Positions 1-59,172 of a DNA stretch of 64,000 nt are shown here, one piece after another. Source of the DNA: a virus (lineage: Duplodnaviria > Caudoviricetes); IMG/VR virus record IMGVR_UViG_2706795949_000001, positions 1 through 64,000 of that record; one strand, written 5' to 3'. The notes beneath the pieces are model-generated. The model was given only the letters and a program-made list of their open reading frames with translations. It was not told the DNA's origin and did no database searches. Both the position numbers and the translations under genes were made by a program. Numbering within the stretch: position 1 is the first letter of the stretch; the number at the start of each line of letters is the position of its first letter.

Positions 1-22
1 ATGGGCCGTTTTTCTACTACTT

Positions 23-225
23 GAAATAGCGGCCACGGAATTTCTCGCGCGCTATTTCCAGCGCGCCCCGTGCTGTGTTGCCTCGTTGTGTCGCGCCCTG
101 TGCAGTGCCGCCCCGCATTTCTGTGCAGTGCCGCCCTGTGCAATTCTGCCCCGTAGAAAATGTGCCCCTAGAAAATGTCTCGCGACAATTCTGCCGATAA
201 CCAGAGTTATCGGCAGTGCAATTCT
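23..225. repeat. Cluster of short repeats at the left end
   Basis: GAAATAGCG/CGCTATTTC inverted pair (23-31, 50-58); CTGTGCAGTGCCGCCC x2 (98-113, 121-136); TAGAAAATGT x2 (154-163, 169-178); CAATTCT x3 (141, 186, 219). Confidence 0.85.
190..217. other. dif-like tyrosine recombinase core site (11-6-11)
   Basis: TCTGCCGATAA-CCAGAG-TTATCGGCAGT: arms are 10/11 inverted around an asymmetric 6-bp spacer; the left arm ends GCCGATAA like the actinobacterial dif XerC arm as recalled. Confidence 0.55.
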
Positions 226-372
226 CACAGCGATACGGGGCACTAGCAGGATCAATACCGATAACTAGTGTGCCGGTTTTTGAAATGAACACAGCGCGCC
301 GGCAAATACGTCAGTCCCCTATTGTTGGGACCATTTTTTTGAAAGGGTGGAATAGCGCGGAAATTCACTCCA

Positions 373-495
373 TCCCGTTCTAGAATATATAGAAAATCTC
401 AACCAGCTAGGGACTGGCATTTAGGTCAGTCTCGTAAATTAACACTCTAGTCTAAGTCCCGTTCTAGAATATATAGAAAATCTCAACCAGCTAGG
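373..495. repeat. 39-bp perfect direct repeat x2, 84-bp period (candidate iterons)
   Basis: TCCCGTTCTAGAATATATAGAAAATCTCAACCAGCTAGG at 373-411 and 457-495, continuing imperfectly downstream. Confidence 0.9.
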
Positions 496-536
496 AACTG
501 GAATTTTAGGTACCATCTAACCAATTAACCCAGACC

Positions 537-1202: not shown

Positions 1203-3224
1203 TCAGTTATTCTTGAGCTGAGCCTGCTGGATTTTCTCCTCCCAGAAATCGTAATGCACCGGATCGACAAACCTGTCGAGCGGCCTGCCTCGTCCCAGCT
1301 TGATGCGCTCGTAGTGCAGAATTACGTCGTCTCGTACTAGCGACTTCAGCAAGAAATCATAGTCCCGCACGGAGTACGTGGCTCCCAGTGACTGAGATAC
1401 CCGCTGCTTGAGCACAGACGGCGTAATTCCCTCGCGGCCCGACTTGACGATGTTTTTCATGATCGCCTTCTGGTGGCGCTCGTCGGAGCTTTCCGCCAGC
1501 GCGGCAATACTCTGCCCGCCGTTGACGTCCACAATCCACTGCACCAGACGTTCAGCCAAATCCAACGCCTGATCCGTGATGTGGTCGGTTTTGTAAAGCG
1601 CACACGCCAGCAGCGTCAGCTTTTTGTACAGCAGGTGTACACGCTGCAAACCATTAATGTGCTCCTTCGGGAAAATGTACTGGTCACAGAACGCGAGAAA
1701 CCGGTCACGCTCATTGACGCGCGCAAATTCCACCGTGCCGCCGTTGTGGGTTTTCATGTCGCTAGCCCACGTCCGGATATCCACCAGATACGGCACGATC
1801 GGGTCCAGGTCGATCGGCTTAATCAGCGCCTGCCGCTTCTTGTGGTTGCCCGGAATAAAGAGCCATCGGTTCAAGAAGCCCGAGGCCGCGTCATTAGTAC
1901 CCGAGAACAGCGTCTCCAAAACCTCTGGCTGCACCGAACTGAGAACCGAGCCAAAAGGCAGGTCCGCCTCGTAGCTGCCGTGCGACAAAGAGCTACCGCC
2001 GACCGTCATACCGCAGTCGTAAATTTCGATCAGCGTAGTTTTGATAGTGCTGCCCTTATTGTCGGCCTTGGTAATCAGCGCGGACAGTTCCTCGAATTCA
2101 ATCAAACCCCTGACAGGATGCACCACCTTCTTTTTCTGCACACGCGGTGCCTTGACGCCCGGAGTTAAGGCCGGAGGCACCGAGCTAGCCGGGTCGTCAC
2201 TTTCGTGGATGAAACTCTTGGTAAGAACTTCACCAGAACCGGGCTGGACCACGCGCTTAATGCCGTCAGTGAACGGATCATCCTTGTCGAATTTGATATC
2301 ATCATGCGCCATCAGGCGTTTGATATACCCCATCGAACGGGACTTTCCAGCACTGGTGGCACCGTTCAGGCACACAAAAATATTGCCGTGTACCGGCGGG
2401 CTGTCGGCAAAAGTCACGTCACGCCCGATCAGCAGGCCCAGCAAGACCATGAAATTCCAGAAGTGGTATTCCTCTGCAATATCATCTTGCGACACCAGCT
2501 CCAGATATTCCCGCATTCCGGTGCCGTTGTCGAGAAAATCCCGCCACGGAAGCTCCGGAACAAACATATCCTCCGGCGACTCGATCCCGAAATCGTACGG
2601 ATTTTCTGAATCGCGGTGAGCACCCTGCACGACCGGCTCCTCGGCGGCAAAACCCGCCGGGAACTGCACCACATTAGTTTTGGAGCGATTTTTCTGGTGA
2701 TCCTGCGTCCGGTACCAATTGCCGTCTGATGCTTGGTGAAATTCCCAGCCAAGGTTCAGCAACTTATTGGCGTCATACACAGCCTGGTGCAGCTTATCTG
2801 CCGGGCAGCTAGTGTCAGCTCTGGCATAACCCTGCTTGTAGGCAATCAGATTAAAAATGTCGCCGCCTGCTTCACAGCCGAAGCATTTGAAAACATTCGT
2901 CGCAGTGTTGATGCTCATGCTGGGATTACGGTCGCCGTTGCTGTGACCGTTCTCGTTAAAACATGAAACCTGCGTCTCGGTGCCGCGCGTATTCAGTACA
3001 GTCTTGCCAGGAAAAAGCCTGCCGTACACTTTGAGCAGGTCGATCCCCTTCAATTCCTCCTTTGCTCCGTCTTTCTGGGTGGTTCCCGCGTTCCCTTTAA
3101 ACTGGGCCAGGGTTGTTCCACCCGCGAGCGCCGCCGTCCCGGCAGAAGCAGGCTCAGGCTGTTTCTGCTGGTCAGAGCGGGGCGTCAGCGCGGTGAAACG
3201 CCGACCGTCGGACGGATCGGTCAT
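1203..3224 (-). CDS. Replicative helicase/primase partner: N-terminal CHC2-like Zn finger plus DUF3987-like AAA NTPase
   Basis: C..H..D..PS......FKCFGC Zn finger, Walker A GATSAGKS, Walker B-like IEFEEL, GFLNRWL; start moved to the ATG at 3224 (ATGA overlap with upstream stop). Confidence 0.75.
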   Translation of the reverse strand: MTDPSDGRRFTALTPRSDQQKQPEPASAGTAALAGGTTLAQFKGNAGTTQKDGAKEELKGIDLLKVYGRLFPGKTVLNTRGTETQVSCFNENGHSNGDRNPSMSINTATNVFKCFGCEAGGDIFNLIAYKQGYARADTSCPADKLHQAVYDANKLLNLGWEFHQASDGNWYRTQDHQKNRSKTNVVQFPAGFAAEEPVVQGAHRDSENPYDFGIESPEDMFVPELPWRDFLDNGTGMREYLELVSQDDIAEEYHFWNFMVLLGLLIGRDVTFADSPPVHGNIFVCLNGATSAGKSRSMGYIKRLMAHDDIKFDKDDPFTDGIKRVVQPGSGEVLTKSFIHESDDPASSVPPALTPGVKAPRVQKKKVVHPVRGLIEFEELSALITKADNKGSTIKTTLIEIYDCGMTVGGSSLSHGSYEADLPFGSVLSSVQPEVLETLFSGTNDAASGFLNRWLFIPGNHKKRQALIKPIDLDPIVPYLVDIRTWASDMKTHNGGTVEFARVNERDRFLAFCDQYIFPKEHINGLQRVHLLYKKLTLLACALYKTDHITDQALDLAERLVQWIVDVNGGQSIAALAESSDERHQKAIMKNIVKSGREGITPSVLKQRVSQSLGATYSVRDYDFLLKSLVRDDVILHYERIKLGRGRPLDRFVDPVHYDFWEEKIQQAQLKNN

Positions 3225-3625
3225 GCGACACCGCGGTTCCGGCGGTGAGCGACGGCTCCGGCGGGGTGAATGCCGGATTCTTCGTTGCGCCTCTGCACGT
3301 AATTCTGCCAATCCTTCTTGCGGCACGCTTTGCACGCCGACTTACGACCATCTACCTTTGTTTTGTCTAGCGAAAAGTATGCCTGGTCTTTCTTTTCGCC
3401 ACACTTGCTGCACTGCTTGAGTTTTCCGGTGATCGTACGCGGGTCCACCGCACCGACCTTTACGAAACCCGGCTTCACGACCGCGTAACTGGAATTGCAG
3501 GTCTTGCAAATGTTCCGGTAGCCGTCTTTTCGGGTTGCGTCACGATTAAAATACTGGATCGGCAGCGTTTCGTGACATTTTGTGCATTCTTTCTCAGTGA
3601 TGTTGTGTTCTGGCTCGTTATTCAC
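3221..3625 (-). CDS. Protein with two tandem Cys4 zinc ribbons
   Basis: CTKC...CKTC and CSKC...CKAC repeats; GTG start with AGGAGG RBS. Confidence 0.75.
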   Translation of the reverse strand: MNNEPEHNITEKECTKCHETLPIQYFNRDATRKDGYRNICKTCNSSYAVVKPGFVKVGAVDPRTITGKLKQCSKCGEKKDQAYFSLDKTKVDGRKSACKACRKKDWQNYVQRRNEESGIHPAGAVAHRRNRGVA

Positions 3626-5942: not shown

Positions 5943-6105
5943 AGCGGTGAGCCTCCCAGGGTCGAGGGGTTTGGTCCGGTTTGACCAGTCTAGCCTAGTG
6001 AGACCGAGAATGCCAGTCCTTAGACCGGCGAACCGTTGAGTTCTGGTTATCGGCGGTCCGCGAAGAGTTCGCAGGCCCGTCTTTCGCGATCCGTACGACG
6101 TGGGG

Positions 6106-50907: not shown

Positions 50908-51495
50908 CTAAGTCAGGAATAGGGACTCGACGTAATACTCCAGCTCGTTGCGAGATGCCGTGCAATCATCGAGGACGCGGTGCGTCTTATTGGCGGGCGC
51001 GGCATTTTCAAGCAGTGCAGGCTTGTAGATGCGGGCCATTTCCTTGATGCTCGAAATGTCAATGTTTCGATAATGGAACGCGGCATTCAGGTTCGGCATT
51101 TGCAGCGACAGAAACTGTCGATCAAAATGAATGCTCGAACCGCACAGCGGGAGTTGTACGCGATTTTTCCCCAGTGAGTATTCTTTGAGCCAGTCAATTG
51201 CTTCCGTCTCGACCATCGCCTGGTCCATTCGGATATGGCTGTCGTACTTGCTCTGGATATCCTGGATCAGACCGTTCTCGGTGTGCATATTGAGAACGTA
51301 ATCATTGCCCAGCTCTTTGTGCGACAGGAGATTGACGTGATTGACTGTGTTTGAGTCAGACATAATCCAGCTACGCTCGTCGATCAATTCGAGTCGGGCG
51401 GTGTACAACTGGATGCCCAATTCAATCATGATGTTCTGCTGCGGATCAAGTCCGGTGGTCTCGATATCGAGAATCACGACCTTAGGTTGTGCCAT
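50908..51495 (-). CDS. Oligoribonuclease-like DEDDh exonuclease
   Basis: LDIETTGLD, MHTENGL, GSSIHFDRQFL, FHYRNIDISSIKE, HRVLDD closely match the Orn pattern. Confidence 0.85.
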   Translation of the reverse strand: MAQPKVVILDIETTGLDPQQNIMIELGIQLYTARLELIDERSWIMSDSNTVNHVNLLSHKELGNDYVLNMHTENGLIQDIQSKYDSHIRMDQAMVETEAIDWLKEYSLGKNRVQLPLCGSSIHFDRQFLSLQMPNLNAAFHYRNIDISSIKEMARIYKPALLENAAPANKTHRVLDDCTASRNELEYYVESLFLT

Positions 51496-51745
51496 TTTCT
51501 TCTGCCTCAATTTCTGCTCGGGTGTCGCTGTAAAGTTTCAGCGCCAGGTCAATTACGTCTTGCTTGGGAATTCGCCAGTCTCTGCCGATCTTAATTGCAC
51601 CCGGCAGATACTCGGGGTCTTTTAGCCACAGGCCCAGGGTGCTACGGCTGATGCGGAAAAAATCCTTGACTTCCGTCGCCGTCATTAGCTCCGGCAAATC
51701 CCGGACTAGGTGCTCTGCTCGACCTCGTCGTTGATCGTCATTCAT
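51482..51745 (-). CDS. Excisionase-like HTH DNA-binding protein
   Basis: LMTATEVKDFFRISRSTL...IKIGRDWRIP. Confidence 0.85.
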   Translation of the reverse strand: MNDDQRRGRAEHLVRDLPELMTATEVKDFFRISRSTLGLWLKDPEYLPGAIKIGRDWRIPKQDVIDLALKLYSDTRAEIEAEENGTT

Positions 51746-54587: not shown

Positions 54588-55250
54588 TCAGAACGGCATT
54601 CCCTTGTTCACGGTCGGCGGTGCGGGCGTTTCCGTTGCCGGTGCCGCCGGTGCTGCCGGTGCTGCGGGCGTCTCCGTTGCGGCGGGCGCGGGAGGTGCGG
54701 GCGGCGCGGTCGGCGCGGCGGGCGGCGGCGTCGGAGCTGCTGCCGACTGCGAGATATTCGAGATGCCGGAATCGGCGGTTCCTCCGGAAACCGAAGTCAC
54801 ACCAGCCCGAATCTGCTCTGCGGTGGGAATTTCACGCTCACGCCGAGTGTCGTCAAACAAATTCGGCTTTGCGTCAACCCACTGCTGCGCGACGGCGATT
54901 TCCTCGTCCGAAAGCGGCTCGACCACAATGTATTCTGCGGTCTGCGCCTTGTTCTTCTTCATGCGAAGTCGAACCGGAAGAGTTTCGCCGACATGATTGT
55001 TCAGGTTGTCCCACACAATGTCATTCATCCACATGACATGAATGAAAACCTCCTGCGTGGTGAGGTCGAGAATGTCGACGTAAATCGCCTTGCCGTCACC
55101 GGCGGGCGAATACTGCGTCTTCATGTTCTCGCGCTTGTCCACGATATTGATGAGCAGCGGGTGTGCCGCTGCCGCAACATCTTTTGCCTTCAAGCGGTCG
55201 CCTTCGATTTGCGAAGTCGGCTCGAAAGTTCCAAGCTGTCCCATTCCCAT
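54588..55250 (-). CDS. Putative ssDNA-binding protein
   Basis: Beta-rich N-terminal domain, Pro/Ala linker, terminal PF; GAGGAG RBS; function inferred. Confidence 0.45.
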   Translation of the reverse strand: MGMGQLGTFEPTSQIEGDRLKAKDVAAAAHPLLINIVDKRENMKTQYSPAGDGKAIYVDILDLTTQEVFIHVMWMNDIVWDNLNNHVGETLPVRLRMKKNKAQTAEYIVVEPLSDEEIAVAQQWVDAKPNLFDDTRREREIPTAEQIRAGVTSVSGGTADSGISNISQSAAAPTPPPAAPTAPPAPPAPAATETPAAPAAPAAPATETPAPPTVNKGMPF

Positions 55251-55382
55251 TTTTGTTTTCTCCTCTGTTGCGGTTTTTCCTTGCCCTTGGTACGCGGTGT
55301 GGGTCACCGCAGACCACCGGGGACTCCCGGCTGGCGAACTTGACGCTACCTGATGGTAGCGAGTGATAGCAAGCGGGACTTG

Positions 55383-58022: not shown

Positions 58023-58375
58023 TTTGCGTGACTCCCCGGTCCGTAATTTTCAGGATCGAGCTTGTCCCAATCCTCGTACATCTTTTTAAGCCTCTTGGTG
58101 AGCCTGTTGGTGGTACTCGATGCACAGTGCCTGCCATAGGCTGCATTTGTGGCACGCTCGTAGAGTTCAAAGTTATCTAGGCTGGAGATAATTACCACGC
58201 CTTCGTAATCCGGATACTTGGGATTTATCGTCAGCTCAATGCATCCGAGACCGTTTGGTCCGCCGTGGTTTTTCACTACTCGATACACCCGGCCCGACAC
58301 GGTATTTTGGATCGTGTCATTAATGAGTATGTCATTAAAGTCGAGTGGCTTCTTTTTTGCGCGTCCTAATCTCAT
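58019..58375 (-). CDS. Hypothetical protein
   Basis: Coupled ORF downstream of the recombinase. Confidence 0.65.
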   Translation of the reverse strand: MRLGRAKKKPLDFNDILINDTIQNTVSGRVYRVVKNHGGPNGLGCIELTINPKYPDYEGVVIISSLDNFELYERATNAAYGRHCASSTTNRLTKRLKKMYEDWDKLDPENYGPGSHAK

Positions 58376-59172
58376 GCGAAATTCACTCCATTCCGTACCC
58401 GACTATCGGCGAGTCCGAGGTATTGCTGTGTCTGTGCCACCGAGCTGTGTCCGAGCAGACGCTGAACCAAAACCAGGTCGCGGCTACTCTGCTCATACAA
58501 TTCGGTGGCGAATGTGGCGCGAAGGTCGTGGCTGGTAATGCTGTCGCCGTTGCCGTGACGCACGCCAATATTCGAGAATGCTTCGGTGATCTTTTCTCGT
58601 GCCCACCGATCCTGTAGGCCGACCATCTTTTCGCGGGGATTCTTCGGGGCGCACTCCAGAAGAATTGCTTCCAGCTCTGTGCTCACCGGAATAACGCGAG
58701 TCTTTCCGCCCTTGCCGGTAATCCTGAGAGCCTGCGCGGCGCGGTCCCAGCTCTGGCCGGTCACTGCCAGCGACTCCGCGACCCGCAGCCCCGCCAGCGC
58801 GCCGAGAGCGATGAGCAGTCGCACGCGGCGGTCCGTGACAGTCCCTAGAACCGCCCTGACGACCACGATGCCGCCTGGTACCGGGTGCGGGGTAGGCGCG
58901 CCTACCGTGGGCAGCTTGTAGGCGCACAGGGCGGCGTCGGCGGCGGCGTCCCCGGTGAACCGGGTCCAAGCCTTGAGCGCGGCGGTGCGGGATTTGAGCG
59001 TGGCCGGACTGGCTCCGGAATTCCGCGATTCGATGAGCCATTCGATGGGGTCGGCGTAATTCAGGTCGAGAAACTGGCGAACGATGTTCGTGTAAATACG
59101 AACCGTGTTCTTCGACTTGCCGACGCGAAAAAGGCTGGCTTCAAAATTATCAAGCGAGTGAGAATTATTCAT
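58372..59172 (-). CDS. Simple (Xer/Cre-type) tyrosine recombinase without arm-binding domain
   Basis: GLRVAE, GKGGK, HDLRATF, LLGHSS, QQY catalytic R-K-H-R-H-Y set; only 266 aa. Confidence 0.92.
   Translation of the reverse strand: MNNSHSLDNFEASLFRVGKSKNTVRIYTNIVRQFLDLNYADPIEWLIESRNSGASPATLKSRTAALKAWTRFTGDAAADAALCAYKLPTVGAPTPHPVPGGIVVVRAVLGTVTDRRVRLLIALGALAGLRVAESLAVTGQSWDRAAQALRITGKGGKTRVIPVSTELEAILLECAPKNPREKMVGLQDRWAREKITEAFSNIGVRHGNGDSITSHDLRATFATELYEQSSRDLVLVQRLLGHSSVAQTQQYLGLADSRVRNGVNFA

Follow-up and report, generated by a model that had tools for sequence, protein, structure and literature searches.

Which DNA does the tyrosine recombinase of a phage considered virulent act on? Gordonia phage Jumbo (cluster DF3; host G. 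terrae 3612; 78,302 bp with a 370-bp direct terminal repeat; Pope 2017, PMC5559632, Table 1) raises this question, as it belongs to a group that has been called virulent and whose recombinase was left without an assigned function or target (PMC5559632, PMC4563357). The integrases of the CX and DF phages have no N-terminal domain, are encoded among the right-arm genes, and have no identifiable attP (Pope 2017, PMC5559632). For the GordTnk2 group, no lysogens were found, and the protein was described as XerC-like and probably "a general recombinase during replication" (Liu 2015, PMC4563357). We addressed the question in the first 64 kb of the 78,302-bp Jumbo record (hereafter, the window), near the left end of which a sequence-only reading had singled out a dif-like palindrome. 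That reading proposed that the phage recombinase, or host XerCD, acts there to circularize incoming DNA, resolve multimers, or integrate at host dif. Positions of the features discussed below are collected in the table.

Table. Features of the Jumbo window considered in this analysis, with positions counted from the first letter of the window
Feature	Position	Strand	Remarks
Left copy of the exact 370-bp direct terminal repeat	1..370		Holds the palindrome, an extra half-site, iteron-like repeats, and the T-rich box
Core palindrome CTGCCGATAA-CCAGAG-TTATCGGCAG	191..216		Two inverted XerC-type arms and a 6-bp asymmetric spacer; candidate recombination core site
Isolated half-site TACCGATAACT	255..265	+	39 bp right of the core
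T-rich box GTCCCCTATTGTTGGGACCATTTTTTTGAAAGGGTGG	314..350	+	Ends ~20 bp before the inner repeat boundary
Primase-helicase, first gene	1203-3335	leftward	Profile matches
Inverted exact 13-nt copy of one arm and spacer, GCCGATAACCAGA	6042..6054	-	Intergenic, flanked by the leftward replication module and the late operon
239-aa protein whose Pro/Ala-rich tail ends in MPF	54588-55307	-	In 9/10 site-bearing and 0/4 site-less genomes; nearest profile to the recombinase
Xer-like tyrosine recombinase, 266 aa, without arm-binding domain	58372..59172	-	Pfam, NCBIfam, and PDB matches

Window positions 190-217 read T-CTGCCGATAA-CCAGAG-TTATCGGCAG-T, which the sequence-only reading had described as an 11-6-11 site with near-symmetric arms. 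The palindrome is real, but the eleventh pair is an unpaired T/T; the inverted repeat is perfect either as 11-4-11 (CTGCCGATAAC/GTTATCGGCAG, as called by the repeat finder) or as 10-6-10. With inverted arms of about 11 bp, a 6-bp center, and inner ATAA/TTAT, it has the arm and spacer layout of a dif-type core. It also lies in non-coding DNA, as had been claimed, with no convincing open reading frame across positions 1-1200. The unique part of the genome contains seven perfect inverted repeats with arms of at least 10 bp and a spacer of 3-8 bp, against 0.4 expected under a first-order Markov null. Several of the others have long G+C-rich stems and look like terminators; the palindrome is followed by no T run and drew neither a terminator call nor an Rfam match.

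Half-sites accompany the core in all four DF lineages compared, with one or two within ~100 bp, although their positions and orientations differ. Further afield, ~0.002 chance matches are expected for the 13-nt copy at 6042-6054; its second arm is poor and it has no counterpart in Camerico, while the same intergenic gap in phage GMA3 holds a TCGATAA half-site. The relevance of this copy is uncertain. We also considered whether CCGATAA motifs scattered through the genome form a stoperator-like system and rejected this idea: the 23 occurrences in Jumbo (8.5 expected from base composition, 13.7 from a third-order Markov model) fall mostly on the coding strand, and the excess is probably largely compositional. 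Relative to the third-order model, CCGATAA is ~1.3-1.9-fold enriched in the DF-type phages Jumbo, Camerico, GMA3, and GordTnk2 and 1.2-fold in Orchid, and it is not enriched in a clade of relatives that lack the palindrome.

The location of the palindrome bears directly on what it might do. Computed from the record, the ends of the Jumbo genome form an exact repeat of 370 bp, and the left end opens like that of its relative Camerico, a likeness that supports the start of the record being a physical genome end. The sequence-only reading had suggested determining the genome ends to see whether the site lies in a terminal redundancy, and it does, inside the experimentally defined 370-bp repeat. 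There are therefore two direct copies of the palindrome on virion DNA, the second, identical one being at genome positions 78123-78148 in the right terminal repeat, outside the window. We computed the repeat lengths of relatives from their sequence records as well. In all five recombinase carriers with defined ends, the palindrome is inside the repeat (Jumbo, 370 bp; Camerico, 316 bp; Orchid, 249 bp; Trogglehumper, 330 bp; Reynauld, 362 bp); Monty and Neoevie, which carry no recombinase, have repeats of 191 and 161 bp, respectively, and no palindrome.

The repeat holds a second shared element, a T-rich box resembling GGGAnnnATTTTTTTGnAAGGGG, found at window positions 314-370 and at equivalent positions in relatives with and without the recombinase. 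Its distance to the inner repeat boundary is ~20 bp in carriers and non-carriers alike, and the boundary itself ends in CTC in six of seven genomes and in CGC in Camerico. Carriers and non-carriers of the recombinase both have the box, so it probably does not belong to the recombination site and serves instead in packaging or terminal cutting (or as a terminator); we regard it as a candidate terminase-cut signal in the formation of the repeat. The Jumbo box also scores as a weak terminator. A regular expression for the box yielded nothing useful on metagenomic relatives, in which it is too diverged for a pattern.

Other repeats populate this end of the genome. Iteron-like direct repeats lie to the left of the palindrome at positions 98-151 and 153-184 (CTGTGCAGTGCCGCCC, three copies; TAGAAAATGT, two copies), and their sequence is not kept in Camerico. 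Directly after the terminal repeat come two 50-nt direct repeats, and three copies of the motif GGGACTGGCATT occur in this part of the window (373-506 and 943-954); the same region of GordTnk2 contains the similar motifs GGGACTGGCAT and GGGACTGGAAT. Positions 690-810 comprise an A+T-rich run followed by a pyrimidine tract of CTCTCTGTCCCCC repeats. The A+T-rich run is a candidate replication-origin unwinding element, and an A+T-rich block beyond the repeat is also found in relatives of both clades. A promoter scan of positions 1-1300 found none, and the Rfam search gave no more than two microRNA matches, both sub-threshold and located at 703-754, at a distance from the palindrome.

The sequence-only reading had paired the palindrome with a 266-aa recombinase lacking an arm-binding domain, a description that our searches bear out. 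The protein matches the Pfam Phage_integrase family (PF00589) at 67.3 bits against a cut-off of 27.1, and PHROG integrase families match it at 1e-25. Its best solved structure is archaeal XerA (PDB 4a8e), whose residues 12-273 align with residues 6-263 of the phage protein; because this alignment spans the full length, no arm-binding domain is present. Ten aligned phage homologs all keep R130, K154, H215, R218, H242, and Y251; these residues fall in motifs aligned with XerA. The protein thus satisfies what defines a simple two-domain tyrosine recombinase, namely, a profile match, the R-K-H-R-H/W-Y residues, and core-binding and catalytic domains only. The top NCBIfam models are XerC (TIGR02224; 90.4 bits, cut-off 335) and XerA (NF040815; 89.9 bits, cut-off 220). 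With scores below these equivalog cut-offs, the recombinase is Xer-like but not an orthologue of XerC or XerA, and it is ~31-33% identical to the Xer-type proteins of host Gordonia.

If the palindrome serves this enzyme, relatives that carry the gene should conserve the site. Each of the 10 recombinase-carrying isolate genomes compared has a palindrome, alike in geometry and position, in the non-coding DNA past the 3' end of the primase-helicase gene and upstream of the T-rich box. The core, CCGATAA-N6-TTATCGG or a lineage variant of it, is likewise found in at least seven metagenomic relatives, where CCGATAG variants occur among the sites. Isolates with the palindrome include DF phages and a relative (Jumbo, Camerico, GMA3, and GordTnk2/Gmala1), CX phages (Orchid and RobinSparkles), and Rhodococcus phages (Perlina, ReqiDocB7, and Trogglehumper); the Rhodococcus phages Reynauld and Mbo2 share an imperfect variant, GCGGAWA-N6-TAWTCGC. 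Orchid, a phage of the G. terrae strain that Jumbo infects, has variant arms (TCGATAA/GCGATAA), as does Trogglehumper (CGCATAA).

When 18 lineages are stacked on the center of the site, 7 conserved base pairs, exactly 6 variable ones, and 7 further conserved ones emerge. The next three positions outward are lineage specific and mostly symmetric (ctg/cag, gta/tac, tga/tca, gcg/cgc, ggc/gcc), and the flanks beyond the outer arm positions cannot be aligned between lineages. Judged from sequence alone, this pattern is as expected if one protein reads both arms. The spacer is asymmetric in every lineage stacked, so the site has a direction, and in Perlina and ReqiDocB7 pairing ends at ATAA/TTAT, leaving six unpaired bases as in dif.

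To collect helicase loci from IMG/VR, a nine-sequence alignment was needed, which returned 47; a single protein recovered only Gmala1. All 14 near-complete metagenomic relatives encode the recombinase, and in seven, or about half, of those near-complete carriers no CCGATAA-type palindrome was recognized within 4 kb of the helicase. An exact scan of IMG/VR for CCGATAAC-N4-GTTATCGG gave 18 matches, of which only GMA3 and Gmala1 are relevant; we set the others aside as terminators or chance matches on unrelated contigs.

The converse also holds: collinear relatives that lack the recombinase lack the site. Neoevie, Monty, RoyalG, GTE7, and TIN3 encode no homolog, and none has a CGATAA-type palindrome in the corresponding region. 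To compare profiles, every Jumbo open reading frame was searched against 13 whole genomes. By tblastn, the recombinase alone is present in nine of nine site-bearing genomes and in none of four site-less ones, and near-matches are mostly antisense artifacts inside conserved genes or genes with incomplete distributions. An iterative search with 140 Jumbo genes gave the same answer (10/10 site-bearing genomes, Jumbo included, and 0/4 site-less). A small helix-turn-helix protein (51482-51745) that appeared clade specific by tblastn was rejected as a binder of the site after the iterative search detected homologs in all four site-less genomes. The gene with the profile nearest to that of the recombinase encodes a product that looks, by eye, like a single-strand-binding protein (54588-55307).

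In a tree of concatenated TerL, portal, capsid, and helicase sequences, the four site-less genomes form a single clade (100% support), sister to Perlina and ReqiDocB7 under midpoint rooting. The co-occurrence of gene and site is accordingly a single event, a joint loss under that rooting, and cannot be counted as repeated independent evidence. Homologs of the terminase subunits, primase-helicase, and primase of the site-bearing phages are encoded by the site-less clade too. Because this clade has these genes, as well as the A+T-rich block after the repeat, packaging and origin functions do not seem to need the palindrome, which is an extra element of recombinase carriers only; the T-rich box is common to both groups.

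The arms of the palindrome resemble a host sequence. The proposed dif of Frankia is CACGCCGATAA-TGCACA-TTATGTCAAGT (PMC3025954), and this, along with Gordonia genomes, confirms the XerC arm end GCCGATAA that the sequence-only reading had given for actinobacterial dif. The pattern GCCGATAA-N6-TTATGTCAAGT occurs in more than 120 actinobacterial genomes, including Gordonia and Rhodococcus, nearly always as a single copy. Allowing up to two mismatches, it is matched in 60 of 61 Gordonia genomes, most commonly as GCCGATAA-GATACA-TTATGTCAAGT and near mid-chromosome in most complete genomes. Several Gordonia genomes (G010, G012, G015, G027, and G047) contain 2-5 extra dif-like sites with different spacers, some of them close together or on small contigs; these may mark plasmids or other elements that use host Xer.

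Aligned with host dif, both phage arms reproduce the host XerC arm at nine of nine bases (TGCCGATAA); with flanks, the Gordonia arm is TATGCCGATAA and the Jumbo arms are TCTGCCGATAA and ACTGCCGATAA. The XerD arm, TTATGTCAAGT in Actinobacteria, is missing from the phage site, where the right arm TTATCGGCAG is instead a second XerC-type arm, and the phage spacer CCAGAG is unrelated to the host GATACA. The symmetric arrangement GCCGATAA-N6-TTATCGGC was found in none of the 61 Gordonia genomes.

We propose that the phage's own recombinase uses the palindrome as its core site to circularize incoming DNA, and we put the probability of this reading at roughly 0.45. What we observed directly is the site itself, its presence in both repeats, the agreement of its arms with the host XerC arm, its conservation across relatives, and its loss together with the gene; binding, the positions of cleavage, and the role itself are inferred. 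The interpretation offered by the sequence-only reading is supported overall, each computational check having been favorable, and its mechanism remains an inference in the absence of binding or recombination data. Besides this lack of experimental evidence that the recombinase binds or recombines DNA, several points weigh against the proposal. The gene is not beside the site but ~19 kb from its right copy; the genes for Cre, XerS, XerH, and TnpI adjoin their sites. Related repeat-ended phages manage without gene and site, so the module is not essential to this type of genome. Further weaknesses are that the co-occurrence amounts to one evolutionary event and that many near-complete metagenomic carriers showed no recognizable site in the 4-kb flank. 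The sites of Reynauld and Mbo2 are imperfect, and another dimeric DNA-binding protein would give the same pattern of conservation.

The last of these points invites the explanation that the palindrome is bound by such a protein, unrelated to the recombinase, for example, a replication initiator, a packaging factor, or a transcription regulator. A variable center of fixed length and scattered half-sites are also typical of helix-turn-helix dimers and origin-binding proteins, the palindrome lies between the genome end and an A+T-rich, pyrimidine-rich block by the replication genes, and the recombinase gene is far away. However, no other Jumbo gene has a matching phyletic profile: the helix-turn-helix protein has homologs where the site is absent, the near-match at 54588-55307 looks like a single-strand-binding protein, and the terminase and replication proteins are common to the site-less clade. 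Nor is a nine-base identity with the host XerC arm, combined with the dif spacing of 6, attributable to chance. We regard this explanation as unlikely but deserving of attention. Similarly doubtful is the possibility that enzyme and site are correctly paired but serve another role, acting on a single site per unit in replicating DNA to resolve multimers or reshape concatemers, with the position in the repeat being incidental. The evidence that pairs gene and site applies equally here, and the extra half-sites of DF phages recall the accessory sites of TnpI/IRS. In Tn4430, accessory sites of this system impose resolution selectivity. A general recombination role in replication was, moreover, suggested by Liu et al. 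2015 (PMC4563357). What this explanation leaves unaccounted for is that, in every genome with defined ends, the site falls in the short repeat and not in the ~800 bp of adjoining non-repeated non-coding DNA; resolution of concatemers to monomers would also oppose packaging from concatemers.

Two further explanations are, in our view, highly improbable. Host XerC, with or without XerD, could act on the site, either integrating the phage at host dif or recombining its copies, and the near-identity of both arms to the host XerC arm (TCTGCCGATAA vs. TATGCCGATAA) invites this idea. Yet there is no XerD arm, and the phage spacers are unlike GATACA; Orchid, Trogglehumper, and Reynauld/Mbo2 have different arms, although Gordonia and the sampled Rhodococcus genomes all have the same host arm. 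A site that drifts with phage lineage against a fixed host arm makes host XerCD alone an unlikely user, and the site has been lost along with the phage gene in phages of the same host. Integration at dif, which the sequence-only reading had allowed for, is disfavored by the missing XerD arm and unrelated spacer and by the absence of lysogens in a group reported as virulent (PMC4563357). Our searches of host genomes add to its unlikelihood, as no prophage relatives were found and the 61 Gordonia genomes hold no symmetric site. A TerL relative (52% identical to that of Jumbo) was detected in 1 of 401 host-family genomes, on an 8,332-bp contig of a 2.1-Mb assembly. The contig probably represents part of a related phage, binned with the bacterial sequences, and not a prophage. 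The annotation of Camerico shows replication and recombination genes around the recombinase and no repressor or partition genes, and the phage does not meet the definition of an IMEX, which would be found integrated at host dif and would carry a dif-like site on which host XerCD can act. The palindrome could, alternatively, work as a structure, a DNA cruciform or a DNA or RNA hairpin that primes replication or is a substrate for a junction-resolving nuclease. In favor of this, the single strand folds stably (centroid hairpin, z = -4.0), changes at the outer arm positions compensate one another from lineage to lineage, and relatives encode endonuclease VII or RusA-like resolvases. A purely structural role does not explain why the inner 7 bp are kept in sequence, and not just in pairing, between unalignable flanks, or why isolated half-sites, unable to form hairpins, exist. 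In Perlina and ReqiDocB7, pairing stops short at the dif-like boundary, and the palindrome has no Rfam match or terminator tail.

Returning to circularization by the phage recombinase, we can outline how it might proceed, a scheme inferred from the anatomy of the site and by analogy to Cre/loxP. A dimer of the recombinase would occupy the palindrome, one monomer on each of its identical arms; these arms have a conserved inner part of 7 bp (CCGATAA) and an outer part of 3-4 bp that is lineage specific but symmetric. The two direct repeat copies on the injected linear genome would synapse, and strands would be exchanged across the 6-bp asymmetric spacer. One repeat unit would be released and the rest closed into a circle that retains one repeat, the outcome that Cre/loxP achieves for P1. 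This circle would be the form that replicates, and the repeats would be remade by terminase when DNA is packaged. The extra half-sites of the DF phages may serve as accessory sites.

By function, the proposed module would be like Cre/loxP and the single-recombinase Xer systems, and by the tests made here, it is a member of neither family. In phage P1, Cre/loxP cyclizes terminally redundant injected DNA, and only some headful-packaged genomes carry two loxP copies. Like Cre/loxP, the Jumbo module would pair a single phage tyrosine recombinase with a palindromic core site whose spacer is asymmetric, and two direct copies of the site are carried on packaged linear DNA, a condition met in Jumbo and four relatives, although cyclization itself is inferred. 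Unlike loxP, with its 13-8-13 arrangement, the Jumbo site is 10/11-6-10/11 and lies in a short fixed repeat, so that every virion would carry two copies. The Jumbo gene is away from its site, the group is reported to be virulent, which leaves no plasmid-prophage role, and Cre gave no match to the recombinase among solved structures at E ≤ 1e-3.

The near-symmetric arms suit one protein, as in XerA/dif, XerS/difSL, and XerH/difH. The 6-bp spacer is shared with XerA/dif and classical dif, and XerA (4a8e) is the best structural relative by sequence. The Jumbo enzyme, however, comes from a virulent phage and not a chromosome and scores far below the family cut-offs, and its site is in a terminal repeat instead of a replication terminus, with gene and site apart. 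With actinobacterial XerCD/dif, the phage site has in common the XerC arm TGCCGATAA, ATAA/TTAT, and the 6-bp spacing; it differs in having no XerD arm and an unrelated spacer, and the enzymes are only ~31-33% identical.

The nearest published phage analog that we found is in Tyrovirus, Bacillus phages with ~284-bp terminal repeats whose gp50 is Xer-like and has a putative 11-6-11 attP (PMC9703825). These phages, too, have short terminal repeats; their Xer-like recombinase is expressed, though not from a lysogeny module, and a conserved 11-6-11 palindrome has been put forward as the site on which it acts (PMC9703825). In contrast to Jumbo, the Tyrovirus site is directly downstream of the gene and not in the repeat, and Tyrovirus is considered temperate (PMC9703825). 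In the literature searched, we found no description of a site in the terminal repeat of the phages studied here.

A more tentative extension of our proposal is that the pair represents a clade-wide, Cre/lox-like cyclization module of virulent repeat-ended actinobacteriophages, spanning the DF and CX phages, their Rhodococcus relatives, and many uncultured ones. An enzyme derived from Xer would act on a site present in both terminal repeats, making each genome a ready substrate upon injection; as the site imitates the host dif XerC arm, host XerC might bind it too, compete for it, or be recruited to it. A candidate target in the repeat turns the open question of what this recombinase does into a direct experiment. 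If confirmed, the pair would be a compact recombinase and site native to Actinobacteria, with natural spacer and arm variants that could be orthogonal genetic tools in Gordonia, Rhodococcus, and mycobacteria. It would also be an example of short fixed terminal repeats that house a recombination site and would explain how a repeat-ended virulent phage circularizes its DNA without relying on homologous recombination.
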